A DNA stretch of 12,073 bases from contig DASXQR010000194.1 of NCBI GenBank assembly GCA_036507075.1, positions 1-12,073 on the forward strand. The letters are read 5' to 3'. Position 1 is the first letter of the stretch; each line of letters starts with the position of its first letter. This document shows, in pieces, positions 412 to 12,073 of this stretch. The position numbers and the translations under genes are program-made. The stretch comes from Acidobacteriota bacterium. Its GTDB lineage: Bacteria > Acidobacteriota > UBA6911 > JACQSX01. Below the pieces are notes generated by a model. The model made no database searches. It saw only the letters and a list, made by a program, of their open reading frames with translations, and was not told where the DNA came from.

Positions 412-547
412 ATGGATTGCTTACGGCATCGCGGTTGGTGCGGCCCCGGTTGTGGTGGCAAACGCGCTCGTTGCAGGGATGGCTTTTCTGTCGGCGCGGC
501 GGAGGTCACCGCGAAGGCGCGAAAGCGCGAAGCAAAAAATTGCTTGA
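412..547 (+). pseudogene. 3' fragment of a small membrane protein (YgjV-like or PQ-loop/SemiSWEET-like)
   Basis: The frame from 413 reads WIAYGIAVGAAPVVVANALVAGMAFLSARRRSPRRRESAKQKIA* (TGA 545-547). The W-x-x-YG...P-V-x-x-AN helical hairpin is typical of the C-terminus of these families. The upstream sequence is antisense LacI fragment, so the native 5' part is missing. It is absent from the ORF track. Confidence 0.6.
509..532 (+). repeat. Solo copy of the 8-nt-periodic repeat family
   Basis: CC-GCGAAG-GC-GCGAAA-GC-GCGAAG has the same architecture as the copies at 1734, 4934 and 8745. Confidence 0.6.
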
Positions 548-566
548 GGCAACCACAAAAGCTTGC

Positions 567-1640
567 TCAGTACTTTTTCCCCGGCTTCATGACGTGTCCC
601 CAGCTCAGTACATGCCCAGCCGGAAAGTCATAATCTACGCCGGGGATCTGCTTCGCCTGGATCAGGGTTCCAAACTGAAAATAGACCGCATCCATGTCGG
701 AATGCCACCCGGAGTAATGTCCAAAACCCCCATCCGCGTTTCGACATCCAAGAACCCACTGAGCCGCCTTTCCGATTGCGGCGCGGCACCGCTCAGAATC
801 TCCGCCCAGTTGCCGAAGAATGAAAACAGCGTCAAAACAGGCGTGAACGTCCCAATCCGGCTGCTTGATGTTCCAACCACCATCGGCTCGTTGATCCCTT
901 AGCACCCGGTCTACCATGGCTGCAGCGCGAGGTGTGGCTTCTCCAATCAGCCGGAAAAAATGGGCCATGTGAAAAGCAGCCGCAACATGATTTCCCAGGT
1001 ATCCATCTTCGGCCTGGCTCTTTACCATGTGGTCACGAATGGCTGCCCGATATTCCGGCGGGAACGGCTCATCGAGAGCGGCATAAAAAAGCGGGAAGAA
1101 GCTGGTCGTATACCATGGAAGCTGCTGAAACGCATTCTTCGTAAAGAATCGATCCAGGACCTGGACGGCGCGATATTTCGGTTTCTCTCCCAATGCCCGC
1201 AAAGCCACGACCCCCTGCGTGGTGTTGTACAGAAGCGCCAGTTCGCCCTTGGAATCAAACTTTCCTCCATGATTTATGAAGGAGCCATCCGGCTTCTGAT
1301 GACTTTGGATGAATGCTACTGTTACTTCCTCACGAGGAAGCTTCCAGCCGGCGCTTCGCGCCAGTGTCGCGGCGTAAGTAACGGCTGCCAGATCGCTCGC
1401 GGCGGTGTCAGAATTTCCTTGATAAGCAGGATCAGGTGATGGGGCGTATCCACCATCCTCTCTCGCGCACCGGGTAATGAACTTGAAAGTTTCGTTCTTT
1501 ATTCGGGAACCGTCGATCCCCGACGATGGACTTCCAACTGTCTCACGCGCCGCAGCATGCCCGGTCGCTGGCAACAGCATCCCGGTGGTTGAAAAAACTG
1601 CATCCTTGATAAATTTTCGTCTTGGCAACCTGTTTTCCAT
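567..1640 (-). CDS. Tat-exported prenyltransferase/squalene oxidase repeat (alpha/alpha-barrel) protein
   Basis: Five (Q/R)xxDG(G/S)(W/F/Y)-type repeats: CAREDGGY, HQKPDGSF, SQAEDGYL, DQRADGGW, CRNADGGFG. The N-terminus has a twin-arginine signal PRRKFIK, a moderately hydrophobic stretch and a GHAAA cleavage-like site. ATG at 1640 is preferred over TTG at 1652. Confidence 0.85.
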   Translation of the reverse strand: MENRLPRRKFIKDAVFSTTGMLLPATGHAAARETVGSPSSGIDGSRIKNETFKFITRCAREDGGYAPSPDPAYQGNSDTAASDLAAVTYAATLARSAGWKLPREEVTVAFIQSHQKPDGSFINHGGKFDSKGELALLYNTTQGVVALRALGEKPKYRAVQVLDRFFTKNAFQQLPWYTTSFFPLFYAALDEPFPPEYRAAIRDHMVKSQAEDGYLGNHVAAAFHMAHFFRLIGEATPRAAAMVDRVLRDQRADGGWNIKQPDWDVHACFDAVFILRQLGGDSERCRAAIGKAAQWVLGCRNADGGFGHYSGWHSDMDAVYFQFGTLIQAKQIPGVDYDFPAGHVLSWGHVMKPGKKY

Positions 1641-1695
1641 ATCTATTCGCAAGAGCCGGCGGCAAAGTCGCCATCCGTGTCCGATTCTTCATATA

Positions 1696-1799
1696 CCACA
1701 AAGGCACCAAGGAGCACGAAGCAAGACTGATTGCCACGAAGACACGAAGGCACGAAGGGACATCATTTAGCCTGGGCTCTTGGCGTTCCTGGCGGTGAA
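1696..1799. repeat. Cluster of three periodic-repeat copies (two +, one -)
   Basis: CCACAAAGGCACCAAGGAGCACGAAG (1696-1721), GCCACGAAGACACGAAGGCACGAAG (1733-1757) and minus-strand CCGCCAGGAACGCCAAGAGCCCAG (1772-1795). Confidence 0.8.
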
Positions 1800-1809
1800 G
1801 TTGACGGTT

Positions 1810-1839
1810 TTGACGACAAATTGGGGTCGATACTACAGT
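1810..1839 (+). promoter_or_regulatory. Candidate sigma70 promoter
   Basis: TTGACG (1810-1815), 18-nt spacer, TACAGT (1834-1839), upstream of the + strand hypothetical gene. Motif match only. Confidence 0.35.
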
Positions 1840-2029
1840 GGCGGAGGGGGGATTCAAACGGCAAAGTGCTGTATCCCAAATACCTGCCCGAACACAAAAA
1901 TTCTTGTAGAAAACGGTTTCCATTTGGGGTATGCTACCGGCAATTCTTGATCAGCCTGAATAACCACGCGTGAGCGTGGCTCCTCCTCTATTCAAGGGCT
2001 GGTTAGCAAAGGTGCGCAGGGGCTTTGCC

Positions 2030-2299
2030 ATGACGTACAGGAAATCGATTCGTCTCTCCGAGACGCCAGTTCAACTCGTCTTTGCCTTCGCCAAGGGTGA
2101 ACGGGTTCGCTCAATTTTCAACCCCTTAATCCAGGGAACCGTGCAGGAAGGTTGGGCCGGTGACCAGATCGTTTATCTGATCGCCACTGACGGCGGAAGG
2201 CTGATGACTGTCCCCCAACACCATCTCCGCACCCAGGAGAGCGTCCCTGCGCGCAGTCGCGCCTGCCCTGCCAAGATCGCGGAACGAGCGGTCAGCTAG
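2030..2299 (+). CDS. Hypothetical protein (89 aa), possible SH3/Tudor-like beta-barrel
   Basis: ATG at 2030 follows GCAGGGG. The core FAKGERVRSIFNPLIQGTVQEG...IVYLIATDGGRLMTVPQHHLR has the F-x-x-G-x-x-V...G-x-V...Y-x-I pattern of small SH3-like barrels. The stop is followed by a terminator-like palindrome. Alternative GTG start at 1970. Confidence 0.6.
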   Translation: MTYRKSIRLSETPVQLVFAFAKGERVRSIFNPLIQGTVQEGWAGDQIVYLIATDGGRLMTVPQHHLRTQESVPARSRACPAKIAERAVS

Positions 2300-2503
2300 C
2301 CCGGGTTATTCAAAAAAACTTAACCGCGAAGAACGCCAAGACCAGCGCGGGGTGACGGCCTGGAGCTCAAAGCATGAAGGCCAATAAAAATTGCGTGTCG
2401 CTTTTTTGCGTTCACCTTCAATGCTTTGAGCTCCAGGCCGTCACCCCGCGCTATCCTGGCGTTCTTGGCGTTCTTTACGGTGAGGTTTTTGAATGATCCG
2501 GGC
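2299..2503. repeat. ~205-bp composite palindrome between convergent genes; probable bidirectional terminator
   Basis: Perfect 32-bp inverted repeat AGCGCGGGGTGACGGCCTGGAGCTCAAAGCAT (2344-2375 / 2421-2452). It lies inside imperfect outer arms (2299-2341 / 2463-2503) that contain periodic-repeat copies and A/T tracts. Confidence 0.9.
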
Positions 2504-2523
2504 AGTATCGCGGGCATGCAAAC

Positions 2524-3858
2524 CTATTTCGACACCAACTCCAGCGGGATGGCATTCGTCCTCGGACCGAAGGCCCCGATGATAATTGCCACCCCCAGCC
2601 ATGCTGCCGAGATCAGCAGAATCACGGCAAACACGCCGTGTGCCAGCATTGCGCCGATCACCAGCGATGAGAGCGCAGCGCTCAGGCGGCTCCAGCTATA
2701 TGTAAAACCCACTCCGGTCGCGCGCGCGCGCGTGGGAAACAACTCGGCCTGGTAGGTGTGAAGCACGGCGGAAAACCAGTACGAAAGCGTGGTGATCAAC
2801 GCGCCAAACAAAACCACCAACGCAGGATGTCGCACCTGGCTGAACAGGATGCCGGCAACCGCGATGGCCGAGGAGAGCAGAGTGATGGCCCACTTGCGCT
2901 CCAGCCGATCAATCGTCCAAACGGCAATCACAGGACCCAAGGGGCTCGCCAGCGCCATCAGCAGGGTGTATCCCAATGATCGAACCAGCGGAATCCCCTG
3001 CTGAACAAGGAACGTCGGCAGCCAGTTGGCATATCCGTAAATACCGATCGTCTGCAGAAAGTGGAAACCGATTAACATCGCAGTCCTTTTCAGATACGGA
3101 CCGCGCCACAATTCCAGCCAGGGTATGGTGCTGGCAGATTCGGCTGTCACTTGCAGCGGTTCGGGCAAGGGTTTGCCTGTCTCCTGCTCGATTTGGCGTT
3201 CAATTCCTGCAACCAGCCGCTCGGCTTCCGCAACACGGCCGCGGGATTCCAGCCACCGCGGCGATTCGGTCAGAGAACGCCTCAGGTACCAGGCCAACAG
3301 CGCTCCCATGGCGCCAATCACCATCACCCACCGCCAGCCCGCCAGGAGAAAATGAGTTGGCACCAGCAACCAGGAAAGCGCGGCGACAACGGGAACGGCG
3401 AGAAAGCCGGATACCTGCGTGATTGCGATAAACCTGCCGCGAACCGCGCTCGGCACCATCTCGGTCACATACGTGTCAATCACGACAAGCTCCGCGCCAA
3501 TTCCCACGCCGGCCAGAGCGCGCGAGGCGATCAGCCAGAAGGCGCTGGGAGCAAATGCGCCGGCCAGTGTAAAGACGGAATAAATCAGCAGCATGAACAC
3601 AAAGGCAGTGCGCCTTCCCAGGTAATCACTCCCCATTCCAAAAATGATCGTGCCGGCAAACATTCCCAGGAATCCCGACGAGATAAACATGCTGAGCTGA
3701 CGAAGGTCGAAAAAACCCGAGGCGTGCAGAGCGGCTCCCAGATACGCAACCATGAAAATATCGTAAAAATCAAACCAGGCGCCCAGCGAAATCAGGGTGA
3801 TGAACCGGTAATGAAATTTACTGACGGGAAGCCGTTCCAGACGGCCGGCGATGTTCAT
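2524..3858 (-). CDS. MFS transporter (aromatic acid/metabolite:H+ symporter-like)
   Basis: 444 aa with about 12 hydrophobic segments. Motifs: RLERLP N-terminus, FDFYD, motif A GMGSDYLGRR, YVTEMVPSAVRGR, ESPRWL, DRLERK, ELFPTRARATG. Confidence 0.95.
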   Translation of the reverse strand: MNIAGRLERLPVSKFHYRFITLISLGAWFDFYDIFMVAYLGAALHASGFFDLRQLSMFISSGFLGMFAGTIIFGMGSDYLGRRTAFVFMLLIYSVFTLAGAFAPSAFWLIASRALAGVGIGAELVVIDTYVTEMVPSAVRGRFIAITQVSGFLAVPVVAALSWLLVPTHFLLAGWRWVMVIGAMGALLAWYLRRSLTESPRWLESRGRVAEAERLVAGIERQIEQETGKPLPEPLQVTAESASTIPWLELWRGPYLKRTAMLIGFHFLQTIGIYGYANWLPTFLVQQGIPLVRSLGYTLLMALASPLGPVIAVWTIDRLERKWAITLLSSAIAVAGILFSQVRHPALVVLFGALITTLSYWFSAVLHTYQAELFPTRARATGVGFTYSWSRLSAALSSLVIGAMLAHGVFAVILLISAAWLGVAIIIGAFGPRTNAIPLELVSK

Positions 3859-3862
3859 TTAA

Positions 3863-4123
3863 GTTTCGGGTTTTCGGGTTTCAGGGTTTCGGGTTTCGGG
3901 TTTCAGGCTACAAGTTTCCGGTTACGGGTTTCGGGTTTCGAGTTTCGAGTTTTCGCAGTCGTGATACTTTTGAAGCCCAGAGAGTAACGCGCAGCTTTCA
4001 TTACGCTAATAATCTGAACACCCGGCGAACTCGTAAACCGGAACTCGCAACTCGGAACACGAGAACCCGTAACCCGAAAACCTGTAACCCGAAAACTCGG
4101 AACCCGAAAACCCGTAACCCGAA
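3863..4123. repeat. Two inverted arrays of degenerate 7(-8)-nt units, (GTTTCGG)n and (CCGAAAC)n
   Basis: 13 units at 3863-3956, a 67-nt unique spacer, then about 13-14 reverse-complement units at 4024-4123. The element fills nearly the whole gap between the O-methyltransferase stop (4132) and the MFS start (3858). Confidence 0.9.
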
Positions 4124-4131
4124 GAGGACAA

Positions 4132-4809
4132 TCAGCGAATTTTCACTCCCATCGCCAGTCCTTCTTCCGTGGGAATCATGGTGGCGCGGAATCGGCCGCC
4201 TCGGGCCAGGCGTTCGGAAAACTGGCGCAAGGCGCGCACCGATTCGGCATCCTCTCCGGTGTAAGAAGCGTCGGAGATGTGCCCCCAGGCAAAAGCATTG
4301 TCGGCCAGCACCACTCCGCCGATGCGAAGATGTTCTTCGCTCCATGCCAGATAGACAGAGTAATTCTTCTTGTCAGCGTCGATAAAAACCACGTCAAAAG
4401 GTCCGTCCCGATTAATGCCAGGCAGTTTTTCCACTGCATTGCCGATATGAATGCGGACGTTCTCGGTCATTCCGGCGCGCGAGAATGATTCGCGTGCTAC
4501 CTCGGCATTCTTTTTTTCCAGCTCAAATGTGTGCAGAAAACCGTCCCGCCCCATACCTCTGAGGATGCAAACGCCGCTGTAGCCGCCGAGCGTTCCGATC
4601 TCGACGGCCTTCTTGGCCATCACGGCCCGGGTCAGCACCTCCAGGTGCAGGCCGTCGAATTTTCCGACCTGGATCACGGGCAAACCCTCTCGCTCGCTGC
4701 GGGTGCGGATCTCACGAAGGATGTCGTCTTCGGGAGTATAGACCTGCTCGACCCACCTCGCGATTGCCACGCTTGCCTGACCGAAGCCTTTTTCCACCGG
4801 CGATCGCAT
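4132..4809 (-). CDS. Class I SAM-dependent O-methyltransferase (Methyltransf_3, CCoAOMT/YrrM-like)
   Basis: Motifs VEIGTLGGYSG, HTFE, PFDVVFIDADKKNY, GGVVLADN and EGL. ATG at 4809 follows a GGGAGA RBS, giving 225 aa. The longer 300-aa ORF call extends into intergenic repeats. Confidence 0.92.
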   Translation of the reverse strand: MRSPVEKGFGQASVAIARWVEQVYTPEDDILREIRTRSEREGLPVIQVGKFDGLHLEVLTRAVMAKKAVEIGTLGGYSGVCILRGMGRDGFLHTFELEKKNAEVARESFSRAGMTENVRIHIGNAVEKLPGINRDGPFDVVFIDADKKNYSVYLAWSEEHLRIGGVVLADNAFAWGHISDASYTGEDAESVRALRQFSERLARGGRFRATMIPTEEGLAMGVKIR

Positions 4810-4895
4810 TGCTGTCTCCCATCTGCGTTTTCTCGAGCTACTATGAAAACATGGGGCAACTGAAATCCCAAAAGCTTTCGTTTGAATGGTTGAAA

Positions 4896-4957
4896 CTTCG
4901 TGCCTTCGTGTCTTCGTGGCCAAAATCGGACTGCCACGAAGACACGATGACACGAAG
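4896..4957. repeat. Periodic-repeat hairpin (25-bp arms, 12-nt loop)
   Basis: CTTCGTGCCTTCGTGTCTTCGTGGC / GCCACGAAGACACGATGACACGAAG, 23 of 25 positions complementary, in the divergent O-methyltransferase/DedA intergenic region. Confidence 0.9.
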
Positions 4958-5020
4958 GGCGCGACATATCGCGACTCTGCGAGTGGCGCGAAGCGACGCC
5001 CGTTGTAAACTACTGCTGCA

Positions 5021-5611
5021 ATGCTTGAGAACATCCTGCAGTACTTTCACGCCTACGGCTACTGGATCCTCTTCTTCGGCGTGATGCTCGAAAACGCCGG
5101 GGTACCTCTTCCGGGCGAGACGCTCCTGCTTGCCGCCGGGGTCTATTCGCAGTCGGGGCACTTCCATTTCTGGGCGGTGCTGCTGGTCGCGTTTTTCGGC
5201 GCTGTTCTCGGTGACAACGGCGGATACTGGCTCGGAAAGACGCTGGGGCGCAGGTTTCTGGCAAAACACGGAGCAAAGATCCTTTTCAATCAAGAGCGGC
5301 AAAAGCTGATGCAGAGCTACTTCAAGACGTACGGGCCGCGCACGGTGCTGGTGGCGCGCTTTATTACCGGCCTGAGAGTCTTTACCGCCTTGTTCGCCGG
5401 CGCCTCAGAGATGGAGTGGAATCTGTTTTTCCGATTTAATGCGATGGGCGCGGCGCTTTGGACCGCGGTGATCGGCTCGCTGGGTTACTTCTTTGGTAAG
5501 AACTGGGATACGCTGGAGCGAGTGGTCGGATGGACCGGCGTTCTGCTTTTGATTGTCGCTGTGTTGATGGGTCTTTCCTTCGGGATGAAGAAAATCTTCT
5601 CGCCTGATTAA
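5021..5611 (+). CDS. dedA: DedA family (SNARE_assoc/VTT) membrane protein
   Basis: Motifs LENAGVPLPGETLLLAAG, GAVLGDNGGYWLGK, YGPRTVLVARFITGLR, FAGASEM, FFRFNAMGAALW. Confidence 0.95.
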   Translation: MLENILQYFHAYGYWILFFGVMLENAGVPLPGETLLLAAGVYSQSGHFHFWAVLLVAFFGAVLGDNGGYWLGKTLGRRFLAKHGAKILFNQERQKLMQSYFKTYGPRTVLVARFITGLRVFTALFAGASEMEWNLFFRFNAMGAALWTAVIGSLGYFFGKNWDTLERVVGWTGVLLLIVAVLMGLSFGMKKIFSPD

Positions 5612-5614
5612 GCA

Positions 5615-5668
5615 CTGGCTTGGCGCCTTGGTGGTTAAAAGAATGGAACCACCAAGACACCAAGCCAG
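5615..5668. terminator. Periodic-repeat hairpin between convergent dedA and BON genes (possible terminator or mRNA 3' stabiliser)
   Basis: CTGGCTTGGCGCCTTGGTGGTT / AACCACCAAGACACCAAGCCAG, 20 of 22 complementary; both mismatches are G-U pairs on the minus-strand RNA. It starts 3 nt after the dedA stop. There is no long U-tract. Confidence 0.65.
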
Positions 5669-5700
5669 GTTTACATGCCTGCCCGAGAATTCTCGGCGCG

Positions 5701-6315
5701 CTACTTTTCTACCCGCAGATTATTGGTCACTTTGAACACGCCCGGGACAGAGTTGGCCACAATGCCGGCCTGATTTTTGTCCGCCTCGGAACTGACAACG
5801 CCCACCAGCGTGAGCGTCCCATTCTTGACGATAATGTGAATCGGCGGGACGGCGCGCAGTGCATACCGGTCCAGGCCGGGGCGGCTGAAAATTGCCCGGT
5901 ATGCCGCGATCCGAATGCGGTCATCATTGGGCGAAAGCGGAAGCACTTCAATGTTGTTGATGACCTTGGAAACCTCTTCCAGCCTCTTGACTCTGTTCTC
6001 CGCATCCGATTTAAGGGTCGGACGGGTAACCTGCCCCGAGAGGATGACTGTGTCTCCGTGCACCGAATACTCGAGGTTGTCAAAGACGTCGTAGTAGGGC
6101 AGCGTCACCAATTGATGACGAACTTCCTCGCTCAATCGCGCCTCGTTGACGCTGCCGGCATGCCGCGTCCCGCTCAATTTTGGCTTGTCCTTGTCTTTGT
6201 CTTTATCCTTTCCCTTGTCCTTACCGGCCTCAGCAAGGAGGGGTCCCATTGTGAGAGCACACATCAGAGCGATGATAAACCTGCCAATTTTTGAGAAATT
6301 CAACATTTTGTTCAT
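5701..6315 (-). CDS. Secreted dual-BON-domain protein (OsmY-like)
   Basis: GGAGG RBS, signal peptide ending LAEA, KD-rich linker, and two BON domains (VHGDTVILSGQV...EVSKVINNIEV; VKNGTLTLVGVVSSEADKNQAGIVANSVPGVFKVTNNLRV). Confidence 0.93.
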   Translation of the reverse strand: MNKMLNFSKIGRFIIALMCALTMGPLLAEAGKDKGKDKDKDKDKPKLSGTRHAGSVNEARLSEEVRHQLVTLPYYDVFDNLEYSVHGDTVILSGQVTRPTLKSDAENRVKRLEEVSKVINNIEVLPLSPNDDRIRIAAYRAIFSRPGLDRYALRAVPPIHIIVKNGTLTLVGVVSSEADKNQAGIVANSVPGVFKVTNNLRVEK

Positions 6316-6521
6316 ATGAATCCTCCAAAGGTGGTCTTGTCTGTGAGGGCTCCGCGCTCGTGTTCAAAGGCCGAAGCCTTCGCCGTTATTTAAGCATGGT
6401 TTTTCATCCGGCGCGCCGCTCCCTTCCGATCGCGGGTTTGTGGGTGCCCCCGGTTCCGCGGGTGAGTAATCCGCCGTCCGGCAGAAAACTTCCAACAACC
6501 TCTCTTTTTTGAAATCTTCGA

Positions 6522-6550
6522 TTGCAGCGAGACTTGAACGTCAGTAAAGT
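6522..6550 (+). promoter_or_regulatory. Candidate sigma70 promoter for speA
   Basis: TTGCAG (6522-6527), 17-nt spacer, TAAAGT (6545-6550), preceded by a T-rich tract. Confidence 0.45.
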
Positions 6551-6640
6551 GATTCCTACAAACGAACACGGCACGCTCCCCGTGTGGGAGAATTTCAAGG
6601 GACCGCTGGTTGGCGACGGTCGGAGGAGACAAAGGTCAAT

Positions 6641-8707
6641 TTGGACGAAACAACAGCAACGGCTGCGAACGACTGGGACATTGAGCAGGCGACTTACCTT
6701 TACGATGTCGACCGCTGGGGACGCGGTTATTTTTACATCAATGAGAAGGGTCACGTTGCCGTTCGCCCCATTTTCGAGAGCCCCCAATCCGTCGACATCT
6801 ACGATGTTGTTACCGAAATAAAAAATCGCGGCATCCAACTGCCGTGCCTGATCCGCTTTCAAGACCTTCTCCAAACCCGCGTTATCGAACTCAACGAGGC
6901 CTTCCGGCAGGCCATCAACGAATACGAATACCTCAACGTTTACCGGGGCGTTTACCCCATTAAAGTGAACCAACTCCATGAGGTGGTCGAGGAAATCCTT
7001 CATGCGGGCGAGCCTTACGATTTCGGCCTGGAATGCGGCTCCAAGGCCGAATTGCTGGCAACGCTGGCTCATCTGGATCGGGACAACATGCTGCTGATCT
7101 GCAACGGCTACAAGGACCAGACCATGATGGCCCTGATGATGGCGGGGAGGCAGTTGGGAAAGGACATTATTCCGGTCATCGAGAAGCGCCGCGAATTGGA
7201 CGAGCTGCTGGCGATTTCAGAAGTGATGCAGGCAAAGCCGGCCTTTGGCGTGCGCGTGCGGCTGACTACCGAGGGGAGCGGGCGCTGGGCGGAATCGGGC
7301 GGAGAACAGTCCAAATTCGGCGTTTCGCTGCTCGAGATTCTCGATATCGTTCGCCTGCTGAAAGAGCGCAACCAGACAGACGCCTTTCATCTGCTGCACT
7401 TTCACCTCGGTTCGCAGTTGAATGACATCATGACGGTAAAGGCCGCCGCGCGGGAGGCCACCCGCGTCTACGCCAAGCTTTTTCAGATGGGAATCCCTAT
7501 CCGTTATCTGGATATCGGCGGCGGACTGGGGGTGTCTTACCAGGGCACGCGCTCAGGCCGGGAACAGGACATCAATTACACGCTCCAGGAGTACGTCAAC
7601 GGCGTCGTTTACACGGTAAAGGAAATCTGCGAAGCCGAGGATGTCCCGCATCCGGCTCTGGTGTCCGAAAGCGGGCGCTCCATCACCGCTTACCACTCCA
7701 TGCTGGTCGTGGGCGTTCTGGGAGCCACCACCCGGGCCACAGAAACCGCCTTCAAGGTGATCGAACCGGACGAAAACGACCATGAATCCGTGCATGAGCT
7801 GGTGGATCTGAACCGCCAGATCGAAGGCGAAACCGATCTGTCGCAGATTCTGGAAATTCACCACGATGCCGAGCAGCGCCGCAGCGAGGCCAACTCATTG
7901 TTTTCGCTCGGCTATCTTTCACTGCCGGAGAAGGCGAAAGCGGAACAGCTCTATTGGCGCGTGACACGCAAGATTGCCGAGCAGATCCGGGCCTTCGATG
8001 AAGAGGATCTGCCGGAAGACTTGCGCAAGCTTCACCTTTTGCTGACGGACCAGTACATCTGTGACTTTTCCGTATTCCAGAGCATGCTTGACCACTGGGC
8101 CATCGACCAGTTGTTCCCCGTCATGCCCCTGCACCGGTTGAACGAAATGCCCAACCGGCACGGTATCCTGGTGGATCTTACCTGCGACAGCGACGGCAAA
8201 GTGGACACGTTTGTCGATATTTCCGGGCCCAAGCCGTATCTGGAGCTTCACCCGCTGCAGGACAACGAGCCCTATTTTCTCGGTTTTTTCCTGATGGGCG
8301 CTTATCAGGACATCCTCGGTGACATGCACAACCTTTTTGGACGGGTCAATGAAGTGCATGTCTATGCCGACGCGGAAGAGCCGAACGGCTTCTACATTGA
8401 AAAACTGATTCCGGGCACCACCGTCGAGGAGGCCGTGCAGTTGGTGCAGTACTTCGCCAGCGATTTGAAGAAGCGAATGGACAAAATCGTGAAGCGGCAG
8501 GTTGAAAACAAGAGCCTGCGGGCCGGCGAGGGAATGCGCATTCTGGAGTGGTACAATGCCGCGCTTTCGGAATCCACCTACTACAATTTCTGGCAGAATG
8601 GCCTGGCCCGATTCGCTCCCCGCGACGTCGACGCAAACAGCGTAGAAAAGACAAACGGCGTGGAAAAACCCGCGGCTGTTCCCGAGCAGATCAAAGCCAC
8701 CGGTTAA
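6641..8707 (+). CDS. speA: Biosynthetic arginine decarboxylase
   Basis: PLP-lysine motif YPIKVNQ, plus GLECGSKAEL, ICNGYKD, SGGEQSKFG, LHFHLGSQ, LDIGGGLGV, SESGR, FSVFQSMLDHWAIDQLFP, DLTCDSDG and GAYQDILGDMHNLFG. The start is uncertain: TTG 6641 (after GGAGGAG) is preferred over GTG 6584. Confidence 0.97.
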   Translation: MDETTATAANDWDIEQATYLYDVDRWGRGYFYINEKGHVAVRPIFESPQSVDIYDVVTEIKNRGIQLPCLIRFQDLLQTRVIELNEAFRQAINEYEYLNVYRGVYPIKVNQLHEVVEEILHAGEPYDFGLECGSKAELLATLAHLDRDNMLLICNGYKDQTMMALMMAGRQLGKDIIPVIEKRRELDELLAISEVMQAKPAFGVRVRLTTEGSGRWAESGGEQSKFGVSLLEILDIVRLLKERNQTDAFHLLHFHLGSQLNDIMTVKAAAREATRVYAKLFQMGIPIRYLDIGGGLGVSYQGTRSGREQDINYTLQEYVNGVVYTVKEICEAEDVPHPALVSESGRSITAYHSMLVVGVLGATTRATETAFKVIEPDENDHESVHELVDLNRQIEGETDLSQILEIHHDAEQRRSEANSLFSLGYLSLPEKAKAEQLYWRVTRKIAEQIRAFDEEDLPEDLRKLHLLLTDQYICDFSVFQSMLDHWAIDQLFPVMPLHRLNEMPNRHGILVDLTCDSDGKVDTFVDISGPKPYLELHPLQDNEPYFLGFFLMGAYQDILGDMHNLFGRVNEVHVYADAEEPNGFYIEKLIPGTTVEEAVQLVQYFASDLKKRMDKIVKRQVENKSLRAGEGMRILEWYNAALSESTYYNFWQNGLARFAPRDVDANSVEKTNGVEKPAAVPEQIKATG

Positions 8708-8734
8708 CGACTTACGTCCGCGCTCTTCAAACCA

Positions 8735-8836
8735 AAAAAATCCACCACAGAGACACGGAGGACACAAAGGAAGTTTTGAGCGTACCACTGGGCAAGACTT
8801 CCTCTGTGTCCTCCGTGTCTCTGTGGTGGATTTTTT
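8735..8836. terminator. Periodic-repeat long hairpin with A/U tracts; bidirectional intrinsic terminator-like
   Basis: 44-bp arms AAAAAATCCACCACAGAGACACGGAGGACACAAAGGAAGTTTTG and its inverse, 42 of 44 complementary, with a 14-nt loop, located 27 nt after the speA stop. Confidence 0.85.
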
Positions 8837-9173: not shown

Positions 9174-9208
9174 CTGACCAGTTGCTGTACATGTTCCAAA
9201 ACTTACCC

Positions 9209-9326
9209 CTAGAGACTCGATACATCGCGTCTGAGGCGGGCGCGACAAATCGCGCACAGCCTCCGTTGCGGCGCTTGGGAGGCGACATGTCGCATCCCAC
9301 TCCGACGCGGCGAGGCGCGTCTCTAC
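9209..9326. repeat. Second REP-type inverted pair, (G/C)TAGAGACGCG family
   Basis: CTAGAGACTCGATACATCGCGTCT (9209-9232, +) and GTAGAGACGCGCCTCGCCGCGTC (9326-9304, -), each a tetranucleotide followed by a hairpin. Small GCGA-N-TCGC hairpins lie between them. Confidence 0.65.
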
Positions 9327-12073
9327 GGTGAAATAACCGCCAGATTCGCCTGCTTGAGTTGCGCGTTCAGGGTTGCGCGGTCTCGGGTCTTGAGCGTGTT
9401 CCAGCGCGCCAGCACTTTGGCAAGCTCCTGGCGGCGGGCGGCGACGGCGGCAACCAGTTGGGTCGTGGGAGCGGCGTCGGCGCCCTGCAACAAACCCATG
9501 GCCTGGATCAGGGAACCGCTCATGCCGGCCAATGTCTCCTCACCTCCCGCGTTGGTGACCGCGCCTGGAATTCCCGGAGAGAATCCGCCGCTGCCGAAGC
9601 GCCCGCTGCCGCTGCTGCCCTCAAGCGCTGCCGCCTTCCGGTCGAACGAGGCCAGAGTCTGTGACAGCGAACCGATGCCGGCGCGCTCCTGCAGTTGCTT
9701 CACCTGCGCGCGAATTGCGCGCAGATCTTTGAGCGCCGCCTGCAATTCCAGCGCCCCGTCATACATCGCTTTTGACAGCGAGAACTGCTGCGCCAGTCCT
9801 GCCGCCGACCTCTTGACGCGCGGATCCAGCTTCACGGTCAACGGCTGCCTGTAGCTGGCGCCGTTGACCGTCAGCTTAACAATGTACCGGCCCGGCTCCG
9901 CCCACGGAGAAACAGGCGCCGGTACGGTGTTGTGAGGAACGGCTGCAATCGGAAGTCCCCCGCGTCCCCCGCCCGCGCTCAAAGGTTGATAATGCAGGTC
10001 CCACAGAAAGCGGTGCATGCCCGCTGTCGTTGAAAGAACCTGCGGCGGCCGATACCAGTAGAGCGGAACCGGCGCCGTCGCCGGATCGGGTGCTTCAACT
10101 GAATCGCTGCTGGAGTAGCGGCGAACCGGCTTGCCCGCGGCATCCAGCACCTCAAATGTGACAGGTCCCGACGCGGTCGACTTCAAGTAGTAATTAATGA
10201 TCGCGCCTTCGGGCGGGTTTTCTCCTCTTGGTTCGTCCGCGGGAAGCGGTGTGTCCGTGTTCATGTTCCAGCGCACCCGGTAAGCCACCTGAGGACGGAA
10301 GAGGACCGTCTTGGCGGCTGAAGGGGCTGAAAGCGGTGCGCGCGAGCCGGCAGCGCCATCGCTGACTGTCCGCTCCCTTGCCGCCGCAGCGCGGATTTCA
10401 TCCTGGTTGAGTTGGCGCAGCGGAGTGATGTCGTCCAGGATCCAGAAGCCTCGCCCGTGCGTTGCGACCACCAGATCGTCATCTTTAATAATCAGATCGC
10501 GCACCGACGATGCCGGCATGTTCAAACGCAGCGATTTCCAGTGATCTCCATCGTCAAACGAGACATAAACCTCGCGCTCGGTTCCGGCAAACAACAGCCC
10601 TTTACGTTTTGGATCCTCGCGTACCACGTCGGCAGGCCCGCCATCGGGAATTCCGTTGGTGATGTGCGTCCACGTTTTGCCCCCGTCATGTGTGCGGTAG
10701 ATATGGGGCCGCATGTCGTCGAGGCGAAGCGTGTTGACGGCCGCGTAAGCGGTCTGCGCGTCAAAGCGCCCGGCATCGATAAGAGACACTTTCGCCCAAG
10801 GCGTCAGCTCCGGCGGCGTGACGTCCTTCCAGTGAAGGCCGCTGTCCGCGGTTACATGGATAAGACCGTCATCTGTGCCGGCCCAGATGCGGTTGACGTC
10901 GACGTACGACGGCGCGACCGTGTAAATGACGCCGCGCTGCGACGCCTTCGCAGTGTCGCTGTTCCGGTACTTGCCAACGCCGGCCGGCACTTCCCAGGTC
11001 TTGCGCGACAGATCAGGACTGATCTGCTGCCAGTGTTGGCCGCCATTGTTTGTCTTCCACAGTGTGTTGGCGGCAAAGTAAAGAATATGCGGATCGACCC
11101 GCGAAAAGAGGACCGGCGCCGTGCGCAGCGTGCGGAAATCGGATGGTCGAATCGGTCTTGGTCCCACAGTCTGGGCTTGTCCGGTGCGGCGATCGTAGCG
11201 CGTCACATTTCTGCCGCCGTAAACGATGTCAGGATCCAGCGGGTCCGGCGCGGCGTATCCGTACTCGTCCACTCCAACCGGACGCCACTCGCGGAACGTG
11301 ATCTGGCCGTCGCTGCCGCGGCTCGACACGCAGGCTGAGCCGCTTTCCTGCTGGCCGCCGCACACCCGGTAGGGAAACGCATTGTCGGCAGCGACGTGAT
11401 AGAGCTGCGCGGTCGGTTGGTTGTACCACGAGCTCCATGTCTGGCCCCCGTTAACGCTGACAATGGCGCCCTGATCGCTGGCGCTGAGAATGATGTCCGG
11501 GTTGTTCGGATTGATCCAGATGCGCTGATAATCATCGCCCCCCGGTGCGCCTCGAATTCCCGTCCATGTCTTGCCGCCGTCGGTAGACTTCCACATCACG
11601 GTGCTCGCCACAAAGACGATGTCGGGATTCTTCGGATGAACCGCAGGCACCGGAAGGTCGCCCCCGCCAATCCGGCCAGCCGGACGCGGATCCGTGGTTG
11701 CGCGCGACCAGCTCTCGCCGGCATCGTCGGAACGATAAATGCCCACGCCGCGCCCGGAAGCCACCGAGGCATAAATTCGTTTCGGATTGCTGGGCGCGAC
11801 GGCAAGGTCCGCCTGCACCACGCCGTCAGCGCCGCTCCCCAGGCCGTTGGTGAGCTGCCGCCACGTCGCGCCGCCGTCGCTCGATTTGAAAATGCCGCCG
11901 CCCGTGCCGCTCCACGCTCCGTTTTCCCACGGCCCCTGGCGCGCTTCCCACAGTGCCGCGTAAATGATGTCGGGATTGGCCGGATCGAACTCGATGTCCG
12001 AAGCGCCCGTATTTTCGTCTTTGTAGAGCACCTTTTGGAATGTCCGGCCGCCATCGGTCGAGCGGAATACACC
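9323..12073 (-). CDS. VPS10/sortilin-like BNR (Asp-box) repeat beta-propeller glycosyl hydrolase-like protein; 5' end outside the window
   Basis: The frame is open to the window edge (GVFRSTDGGRTFQKVLY...). Many S/T-x-D-G-G-x-T-W Asp-boxes, plus NQPTAQLY, CGGQQESG, WAGTDDG and VATHGRGFWILDD, followed by a FlgD-Ig-like region and a helical C-terminus. Confidence 0.93.
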   Translation of the reverse strand, partial: GVFRSTDGGRTFQKVLYKDENTGASDIEFDPANPDIIYAALWEARQGPWENGAWSGTGGGIFKSSDGGATWRQLTNGLGSGADGVVQADLAVAPSNPKRIYASVASGRGVGIYRSDDAGESWSRATTDPRPAGRIGGGDLPVPAVHPKNPDIVFVASTVMWKSTDGGKTWTGIRGAPGGDDYQRIWINPNNPDIILSASDQGAIVSVNGGQTWSSWYNQPTAQLYHVAADNAFPYRVCGGQQESGSACVSSRGSDGQITFREWRPVGVDEYGYAAPDPLDPDIVYGGRNVTRYDRRTGQAQTVGPRPIRPSDFRTLRTAPVLFSRVDPHILYFAANTLWKTNNGGQHWQQISPDLSRKTWEVPAGVGKYRNSDTAKASQRGVIYTVAPSYVDVNRIWAGTDDGLIHVTADSGLHWKDVTPPELTPWAKVSLIDAGRFDAQTAYAAVNTLRLDDMRPHIYRTHDGGKTWTHITNGIPDGGPADVVREDPKRKGLLFAGTEREVYVSFDDGDHWKSLRLNMPASSVRDLIIKDDDLVVATHGRGFWILDDITPLRQLNQDEIRAAAARERTVSDGAAGSRAPLSAPSAAKTVLFRPQVAYRVRWNMNTDTPLPADEPRGENPPEGAIINYYLKSTASGPVTFEVLDAAGKPVRRYSSSDSVEAPDPATAPVPLYWYRPPQVLSTTAGMHRFLWDLHYQPLSAGGGRGGLPIAAVPHNTVPAPVSPWAEPGRYIVKLTVNGASYRQPLTVKLDPRVKRSAAGLAQQFSLSKAMYDGALELQAALKDLRAIRAQVKQLQERAGIGSLSQTLASFDRKAAALEGSSGSGRFGSGGFSPGIPGAVTNAGGEETLAGMSGSLIQAMGLLQGADAAPTTQLVAAVAARRQELAKVLARWNTLKTRDRATLNAQLKQANLAVISP

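Follow-up and report, generated by a model that had tools for sequence, protein, structure and literature searches.

What are the short periodic repeats that crowd the gaps between genes in a 12,073-nt stretch of acidobacterial DNA, and what has spread them? The stretch (positions 1 to 12,073 of contig DASXQR010000194.1, assembly GCA_036507075.1; hereafter the window) holds 12 copies of a short head followed by phased hexamers, which an earlier inspection of the letters alone, the sequence-only reading, took for a poorly described non-autonomous mobile element or protein-binding repeat, with genes of the GxxExxY family as a candidate partner. Here, we report an analysis of these repeats in the window, in the genome and across phyla. 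Our preferred reading, to which we give a probability of roughly 0.55, is that they form the arms of a small cassette, a GxxExxY gene between two arms of inverted orientation, and of the gene-less copies of this cassette, and that they likely spread during natural competence.

All 12 copies stand in the window at the positions and on the strands first given for them, the earlier coordinates denoting the first C of the CC head. A strict pattern of the head and two hexamers matched the window eight times, against a mean of 0.025 and a maximum of 1 in 200 dinucleotide shuffles, and allowing one substitution returned precisely the 12 copies and no others. The hexamer variants and the period of 8/9 nt likewise agree with the first description. 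A point that had been understated is that ten of the 12 arms form inverted pairs, three of them head-out (1734/1795, 2324/2480 and 8745/8826) and two head-to-head (4919/4934 and 5634/5649). Four of the five pairs fold into strong hairpins (z from -5.9 to -17.9), unlike the region of the pair at 1690-1805, which gave no strong fold. An Rfam search returned no match.

The genome to which the window belongs (G000; 6.1 Mb, 4,607 genes by our own gene caller) contains about 1,500-2,000 copies. The strict IUPAC pattern matched 1,503 times against 3 control matches, the highest count among 301 genomes of the phylum (the next has 542), and within one bacterial family the copy number ranges from 3 to 1,503. 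With one mismatch allowed, the motif occurs far above control frequency, as a genuine family should, with 2,002 arms against 93 in the reversed genome. An arm consists of R-CC and two or three RCNRAG units with a period of 8-9 nt, and its head is preceded by a T-rich and then an A-rich stretch; the flank profile of 1,439 arms bears out the absence of a GTAG/CGTC tag. Only 135 of the 2,002 arms fall within called genes, 93% being intergenic. The sequence-only reading had the repeats occupying most intergenic gaps, which holds in the window (arms in six of the eight gaps between called genes) and not genome-wide, where they occupy 1,051 of 3,394 gaps of at least 40 bp (31%). The one-mismatch arms pair into 533 head-out and 201 head-to-head doublets, the latter mainly 11-14 nt apart; of the 1,224 loci into which they group, 493 (about 40%) are single arms, and doublets account for 489 (head-out) and 190 (head-to-head). 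The single-arm region at 500-560 folds no better than its shuffles (z -1.45), and the palindrome of a REP is not seen there.

The partner gene was sought with profiles. This genome has six TIGR04256 matches, and the arms described here lie at four of them (L001, L002, L005 and L006), while the remaining two (L003 and L004) carry a sister heptamer arm, CACGAAT/CACGGAT. The gene at L005 is broken, and that at L006 is truncated between inward-facing arms. Each of the four genes has its own main arm variant: ACCAAG at L001, 9-nt GCCAAG at L002, GCC-ACGAAG at L005 and ACAAAG at L006. Beyond this genome, among 128 GxxExxY loci from many phyla (11 others were dropped for short flanks and partial matches were excluded), arms lie within 250 bp of 113, and inward arms bracket 91 from both sides; the named loci span some 17 phylum-level groups. 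The controls gave three loci with the reversed string, six of 244 distant windows and 32 of 4,316 ordinary genes. The association with GxxExxY genes, put forward in the sequence-only reading, holds when enrichment is tested.

Repeat abundance also goes together with the gene. Over 300 genomes (one unpublished genome being excluded), repeat load and gene presence are correlated with a rho of 0.56; the gene is present in 61 of the 69 genomes with at least 30 arms and in 52 of the 231 others. Within families the link was reached in 0 of 5,000 permutations and ran in the expected direction in 15 of 21 families. Arm type follows protein clade, with four changes on a 115-row tree against 32.6 after shuffling. 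Positions in the N-terminal helix were considered as specificity residues and set aside: they differ by arm type, but the types are nearly single clades. A genome can have as many as 19 matches to the gene, with derivatives that arose by deletion; in a deletion series from genome G006, arms remain on both sides in six of nine fetched remnant loci, and four loci share a deletion junction by eye.

Some features of individual loci are recorded here. Arms overlap the start codons at L001, L006 and C79:3968 of this genome, giving the N-terminal tags MNHQD/MNHHKD, a host gene that looks like pheS included. Upstream of the cassettes L187, L188 and L191 lies methionine-synthase-like sequence, which is found downstream as well in two of the three, as between the parts of a split gene.

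The protein is a predicted nuclease. It scores 147 bits with TIGR04256 and 143.5 bits with PF13366, above the family cut-off. Among 23 sequences, E41, Y44, E91, K93, Q105 and N122 are invariant, and D81 and Y109 are nearly so; the QxxxY motif is one known from RecB/Cas4-like nucleases. The structure model (predicted local distance difference test score 95.6) has a PD-(D/E)XK fold. Its structural matches are weak (Cas4 4r5q, E 0.017; BpuSI, Z 7.8, root-mean-square deviation 2.4 over 89 aligned residues): no Foldseek match reached an E of 0.001 or better, and a sequence search found no solved relative. The function of the PDDEXK_3/GxxExxY family is listed as 'Unknown' (PMC3424549).

The tie to competence lies upstream of the gene. 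GxxExxY, Y1 and four-helix-bundle genes have in common a two-part upstream motif, TTCGCA-N17-GTTATGT, whose left flank is A/T-rich. A matrix from 25 training sites, with no GxxExxY site among them and at least two RAYT-type sites remaining, found 61 sites of at least 20 bits in this genome and 0 in its reverse. Twenty genes downstream of the motif, picked by eye from the hits, were annotated, several of them by best matches that lie below curated cut-offs: 13 are competence or recombination genes (ssb, YifB/comM, recA, comEA, comEC, comF, dprA, radC, recG, recQ, pcrA, an Xpf nuclease and a minor pilin), and the other seven comprise one RAYT and six without a family. The motif precedes five of the six GxxExxY genes of this genome (the sixth is without its 5' end), 10 of 12 Y1/RAYT genes and six of seven four-helix-bundle genes, against a background of 31 of 4,502 called genes; the search covered 600 nt for the three families and 200 nt for the background, and 19 of the 21 hits lie within 140 nt. 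In genomes G001, G003 and G004 it stands, at 14-34 bits, before eight of ten GxxExxY genes, the other two being directly downstream of dprA, and before 14 of 17 Y1 genes with enough flank (21 of 52 Y1 matches were examined). It also precedes comM in all three family genomes scored. In this bacterial family, the GxxExxY gene follows the competence-gene motif or sits directly behind dprA.

From its spacing and position, we infer that the motif is a competence promoter. It is predicted to mark the complete competence regulon, and the six motif-preceded genes without a family are candidate new competence genes. The position of the GxxExxY gene behind a motif of DNA-uptake genes makes it likely that the repeats spread while cells take up foreign DNA. 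Some 61-68 motif sites occur in the genome (for example C111, C110, C23, C45, C100, C187 and C208), with conservation in G001-G004, and one of them (C17) precedes what appears by eye to be an anti-sigma gene.

Traces of copying are found in the repeats themselves. Clustering 399 long doublets by their interiors gave subfamilies of 69, 55, 44, 23, 18, 17, 17 and 12 members, in addition to smaller groups and 109 singletons. Within a doublet, changes in one arm are independent of those in the other (same-change counts of 42, 17 and 31 in three subfamilies, against permuted values of 30, 23 and 28), whereas the inner stems change together in two subfamilies (141 against 48 and 168 against 40) and not in the third (76 against 106), all of these counts being inflated by kinship. 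Independent arms beside co-varying stems indicate that what is conserved in the arms is a sequence motif and not the ability to pair; selection of a hairpin at the level of the arms was rejected, as the same-change counts equal the permuted ones in the three subfamilies. There is no target-site duplication: a shared 6-mer flanks 57 of 528 doublets against 58.3 expected by permutation, and no offset exceeds 21 of the 528. An origin of doublets by local inverted duplication of their flanks was also rejected, the outer flanks being no more self-complementary than permuted pairs. Contiguous armless paralogues were found for 12 of 1,203 loci tested; seven of these point to one allele (C72), two to others (C192 and C56) and three are insertions in heptamer arrays. 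The three distinct empty alleles have unequal boundaries.

Comparison with other strains and genera gave a mixed result. A contig from run X2, which belongs to another study than the possible source, agrees with the window apart from a single difference in 2485-4819 and another in 5002-5237; between these two segments it is 275 letters long, against 182 (4820-5001) in the window. The gap with the 4919/4934 doublet thus differs between near-identical strains. No clean skip of an element occurred in the contigs of four runs, among the matches listed. A metagenome scan for filled and empty sites found no relative with dedA, and with speA only relatives at 61% identity or less. The sister genera (75-78% DNA identity) do differ at the orthologous sites, with other repeats or a lone arm after BON and speA, but are too diverged to be aligned there. 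As had been proposed, the element is putatively mobile and non-autonomous, in view of its dispersed subfamilies, gene-deleted cassettes and few empty alleles. Two side observations are added. Near the 3' end of speA, runs X2 and X3 have five substitutions within 12 bp (8669-8680), 65-75 bp before the 8745 arm, on a contig otherwise identical over 3,054 bp; they have the look of a short tract of recombination. At C152:105389, C17:147225, C16:2137 and about ten more loci of this genome, the loop of another palindromic repeat contains members of the 69-copy subfamily, with complementary, locus-specific flanks.

The cassette reading would join these observations as follows. The predicted GxxExxY nuclease would be produced in competence, would read the phased RCC-RCNRAG units as a sequence motif and might cut there or close by, in DNA that is entering the cell or undergoing recombination. 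The host's machinery for recombination and repair (RecA, DprA, ComM) would then install the arm-bounded piece imprecisely in intergenic DNA, and copies inserted into genes would be purged. Imprecise installation fits the single arms, the nested and chimeric copies and the missing target duplication. Taken further, the repeats might be selfish DNA of a new class, for which natural transformation serves as the cycle of replication: a competence-induced, 130-residue RecB/Cas4-like nuclease, free of transposase chemistry, would cut at phased octamer arms, and host recombination would paste the arm-bounded pieces into new gaps, RAYT and four-helix-bundle repeat systems having converged on the same competence promoter; we put this extension forward tentatively, at less than even odds.

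Several points weigh against the cassette reading. The share of 113 in 128 loci is biased toward the L001 clade, 80 input loci having come from an L001 query, and the tree signal shows co-inheritance, not specificity, because gene and arms are inherited together. No gene was detected in eight of the 69 repeat-rich genomes, nor was a resident GxxExxY gene of the GAG arm type of the window found in this assembly. A gene remnant is retained in 1 of 533 doublets of this genome, and so most doublets need not descend from gene-bearing cassettes. The distinct empty alleles are only three and could be deletions. Fold scores, all below Z 8, show no function, and we know of no strand-joining activity in a 130-residue nuclease. 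Binding, cutting, timing and insertion, like expression and movement, are each deduced. The motif scores at least 16 bits at 10 of the 128 GxxExxY loci, all from this bacterial family; in five more distant genomes 26 GxxExxY upstream regions all score at most 2.4. Cassettes elsewhere lie mostly inside housekeeping operons.

The last two points are also the strength of the alternative that survives best, in which GxxExxY is indeed the cognate mobiliser or partner, while the coupling to competence is local to this family and elsewhere operon read-through and intrachromosomal spread, as is supposed for REPINs, do the work. The motif is absent outside this family, most cassettes stand between co-transcribed housekeeping genes and the repeats are abundant in genomes where the motif is not seen. 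Against this, comM (6) and comEA (5) are the commonest cassette neighbours over 161 loci, 10 of these 11 being directly upstream on the same strand, and they remain at the top across distant lineages, with at least three and four separate events, respectively, after sister rows are merged; the order in G148 is GxxExxY-comM-GxxExxY. Other lineages may use other motifs: in the five distant genomes dprA and comM also score low, at most 7.6, and in G072 a look-alike is seen by eye before dprA, comM and one of three GxxExxY genes. The motif-bearing genome, moreover, has the largest load of the 301. We regard a purely local coupling as unlikely.

It is less likely still that the hairpins owe their movement to a RAYT/IS200 Y1 transposase or to host repair alone, and not to GxxExxY, which would then be cargo, for instance a nuclease for screening incoming DNA that is retained because the host gains from it. 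HUH enzymes work on single-stranded hairpins, the genome has 12 Y1 matches, ten of them behind the competence motif, and arms are nested in other repeat families. However, these arms occur at none of the 12 RAYT/Y1 loci and none of the seven four-helix-bundle loci of this genome, on which ground both genes were rejected as the cognate partner; neither fixed ends nor a tag were found in the arms, and load follows GxxExxY within families (the permutation result above).

We consider it improbable that the arms are primarily host regulatory or structural sites, that is, sites for nucleoid proteins, terminators or RNA-stabilizing hairpins. IHF/HU-type regulator sites have been proposed for the Geobacter copies (PMC2700814), the hairpins are strong with A/T runs at the base, and the arms lie largely outside genes. 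Yet convergent gaps are not preferred (34%, against 30% of tandem and 32% of divergent gaps) and singlet arms have no strand bias (105 against 113), the lack of an orientation bias being the reason for which a terminator role was rejected; a simple terminator scan, which covers short loops only, flagged no arm. The range of copy number within one family and the presence of different repeats in orthologous gaps of sister genera also speak against host sites, which in addition leave the link with the GxxExxY gene unexplained. A secondary host role of this kind is possible. Least probable of all, despite some 2,000 copies, inverted pairs and a competence link, is that the arms are uptake or self-recognition signals like the DNA uptake sequences (DUS) of Neisseria, amplified by transformation drive and read in incoming copies by GxxExxY, since the 135 arms in called genes are near the control level of 93 whereas uptake sequences occur inside genes too (PMC2346458), shared whole interiors indicate copying and not point mutation, and the GxxExxY alignment has no pilin or export features.

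The repeat features of the window are collected in Table 1.

Table 1. Repeat arms and compound repeat elements of the window, in order of position.
Feature	Position	Strand	Remarks
Single arm, three units, GCGAAG type	508..532	+	Type equals that of the 12-member subfamily
Single arm, three units, ACAAAG/ACCAAG type	1695..1721	+	Type shared with GxxExxY loci L006/L001
Arm, three units, GCC-ACGAAG type	1733..1757	+	Pattern match
Arm, GCCAAG 9-nt type, facing 1733-1757	1771..1796	-	Pattern match
Compound hairpin element, ~205 bp	2299..2503	.	Arms 2323-2340 (+), 2455-2481 (-)
Head-to-head doublet	4896..4957	.	Arms 4896-4920 (-), 4933-4957 (+)
Head-to-head doublet	5619..5664	.	Arms 5619-5635 (-), 5648-5664 (+)
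Head-out doublet, GAG type	8735..8836	.	Arms 8744-8769 (+), 8802-8827 (-)

Several of these elements can be placed within the family. Over 49 nt, the arm at 1733 and its next bases match the left end of the 69-member subfamily at 98% identity, after which the match is truncated; with the arm facing it, it forms a chimera of two subfamilies that folds poorly (z 0.44). The compound element belongs to the 44-copy subfamily, has a perfect inner stem (2344-2375/2421-2452) and shares its arm type with locus L002. Of the two head-to-head doublets, the first has 84% identity over 63 nt with the doublet next to the broken gene L005; the second has 84% identity over 61 nt with the one that lies downstream of the intact gene L001, and about 140 similar loci in the genome. 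The GAG-type doublet has a 44-bp stem with A/T runs at its base.

The genes of the window encode a prenyltransferase-like protein, a major facilitator superfamily (MFS) transporter, an O-methyltransferase, DedA/VTT and BON proteins, an arginine decarboxylase and a VPS10-like protein. A single-copy open reading frame of 109 codons without a Pfam match (1970-2299) lies between two repeat clusters, and a fragment at 98-349, possibly a pseudogene, resembles a LacI-type sensor domain (PF13377, below cut-off). Repeats of other families are also present. A 107-bp inverted repeat at 8900-9171 matches the two flanks of the Y1 gene C201:35721-36062 at 82-85% identity and contains, at ~9065, a decayed look-alike of the promoter motif; it looks like a gene-deleted RAYT cassette. 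A further inverted-repeat element (9207-9328) has ~39 related loci, with one copy beside a RAYT gene on C88. Inverted GGTTTCG heptamer arrays (3863-3955 and 4022-4123) lie between the MFS and methyltransferase genes, have ~112 related loci and match in architecture the arrays that flank four-helix-bundle genes. A short palindromic repeat at 6395-6450 had five loci by BLAST and many matching copies in G003. Most RAYT/Y1 genes of this and the sister genomes, loci L318-L346 among them, sit behind the competence motif, as do most of the four-helix-bundle genes.

If the cassette reading is correct, a very common family of unknown function, GxxExxY/PDDEXK_3, gains a candidate substrate and a candidate trigger, and a cause is offered for a repeat that occupies a third of the gaps of this genome and has been catalogued in Geobacter without one. 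The motif would predict the full competence regulon of an uncultured soil lineage. Coupling to competence makes the function of GxxExxY, and possibly that of RAYT, directly testable, and the motif before most RAYT/Y1 genes does the same for the timing of REPIN-type movement. RAYT, too, is stated to be of unknown exact function (PMC8049555). If the wider reading holds, REPIN-type repeats in general would move on incoming single-stranded DNA in competence.

With respect to earlier work, 'poorly described' proved apt and 'undescribed' would not have been: this type of repeat appears, without a partner gene, in two Geobacter genome papers. In G. metallireducens, class 2 sites of the form TCTCCGTS[Y] x3, paired on opposite strands, were listed as putative regulator sites (PMC2700814), and in G. 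bemidjiensis nonanucleotide repeats WCCTCTGTG were catalogued in a supplement (PMC2996986). Read as reverse complements (CACGGAGA, CACAGAGG), both obey the unit grammar of the arms described above, with three units in inverted pairs at variable distance as here, and from this likeness the Geobacter multicopy repeats are very likely of the same family. The portions of these papers available to us give no partner gene, mobility or competence link. A search of the open literature, outside of which lay supplements 13-19 of PMC2700814 and 13-15 of PMC2996986, found no link between the repeat and GxxExxY or of either to competence; a search for RAYT with competence or natural transformation, in texts seen in part, found no such link, and one for the motif strings gave no relevant title among the matches listed. 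The seen part of a review of mobile elements and competence has no occurrence of REPIN (PMC12378983), and other inverted heptamer arrays have been described without a partner, as far as the source was seen (PMC4692102).

Among known systems, Neisseria and Pasteurellaceae uptake sequences share with these repeats a very high copy number, inverted pairs and a tie to competence, but the arms here are almost wholly intergenic, are copied as compound units and are linked to a gene for a predicted cytoplasmic nuclease. The mark of a late competence regulon, an upstream motif in common with com genes, is confined to this bacterial family. The partner belongs in full to PDDEXK_3 and has the catalytic acidic and lysine residues, its nuclease role being predicted; Cas4 and type II restriction nucleases are its fold neighbours by weak matches. 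MITEs (miniature inverted-repeat transposable elements) of the Correia, ERIC or RUP type are non-coding elements with inverted ends, subfamilies of shared interior and internal-deletion derivatives. Terminal inverted repeats, multi-copy non-coding subfamilies and internal-deletion derivatives (L006 and the G006 series) are all present here; the family differs from MITEs in the lack of a target-site duplication in 528 doublets, in its unequal ends, in having no link to a DDE transposase and in its share of single-arm loci (493 of 1,224). REPIN-RAYT systems (REPtrons) and TIRtrons (PMC3733652, PMC8049555) likewise comprise hundreds of short intergenic repeats in inverted doublets and a few cognate genes flanked by repeats, with one repeat variant per gene and the moving enzyme supplied in trans. 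Inverted paired units at preferred spacings, dispersed between genes, and a flanked cognate gene are found here as well, but the arms are phased arrays of 8/9-nt units, not palindromic and devoid of a GTAG/CGTC tag, and the partner is a PD-(D/E)XK protein (PF13366) in place of an HUH Y1 transposase. The family is a variant of the REPIN/MITE kind with a non-transposase partner, and the coupling to competence is its new element.

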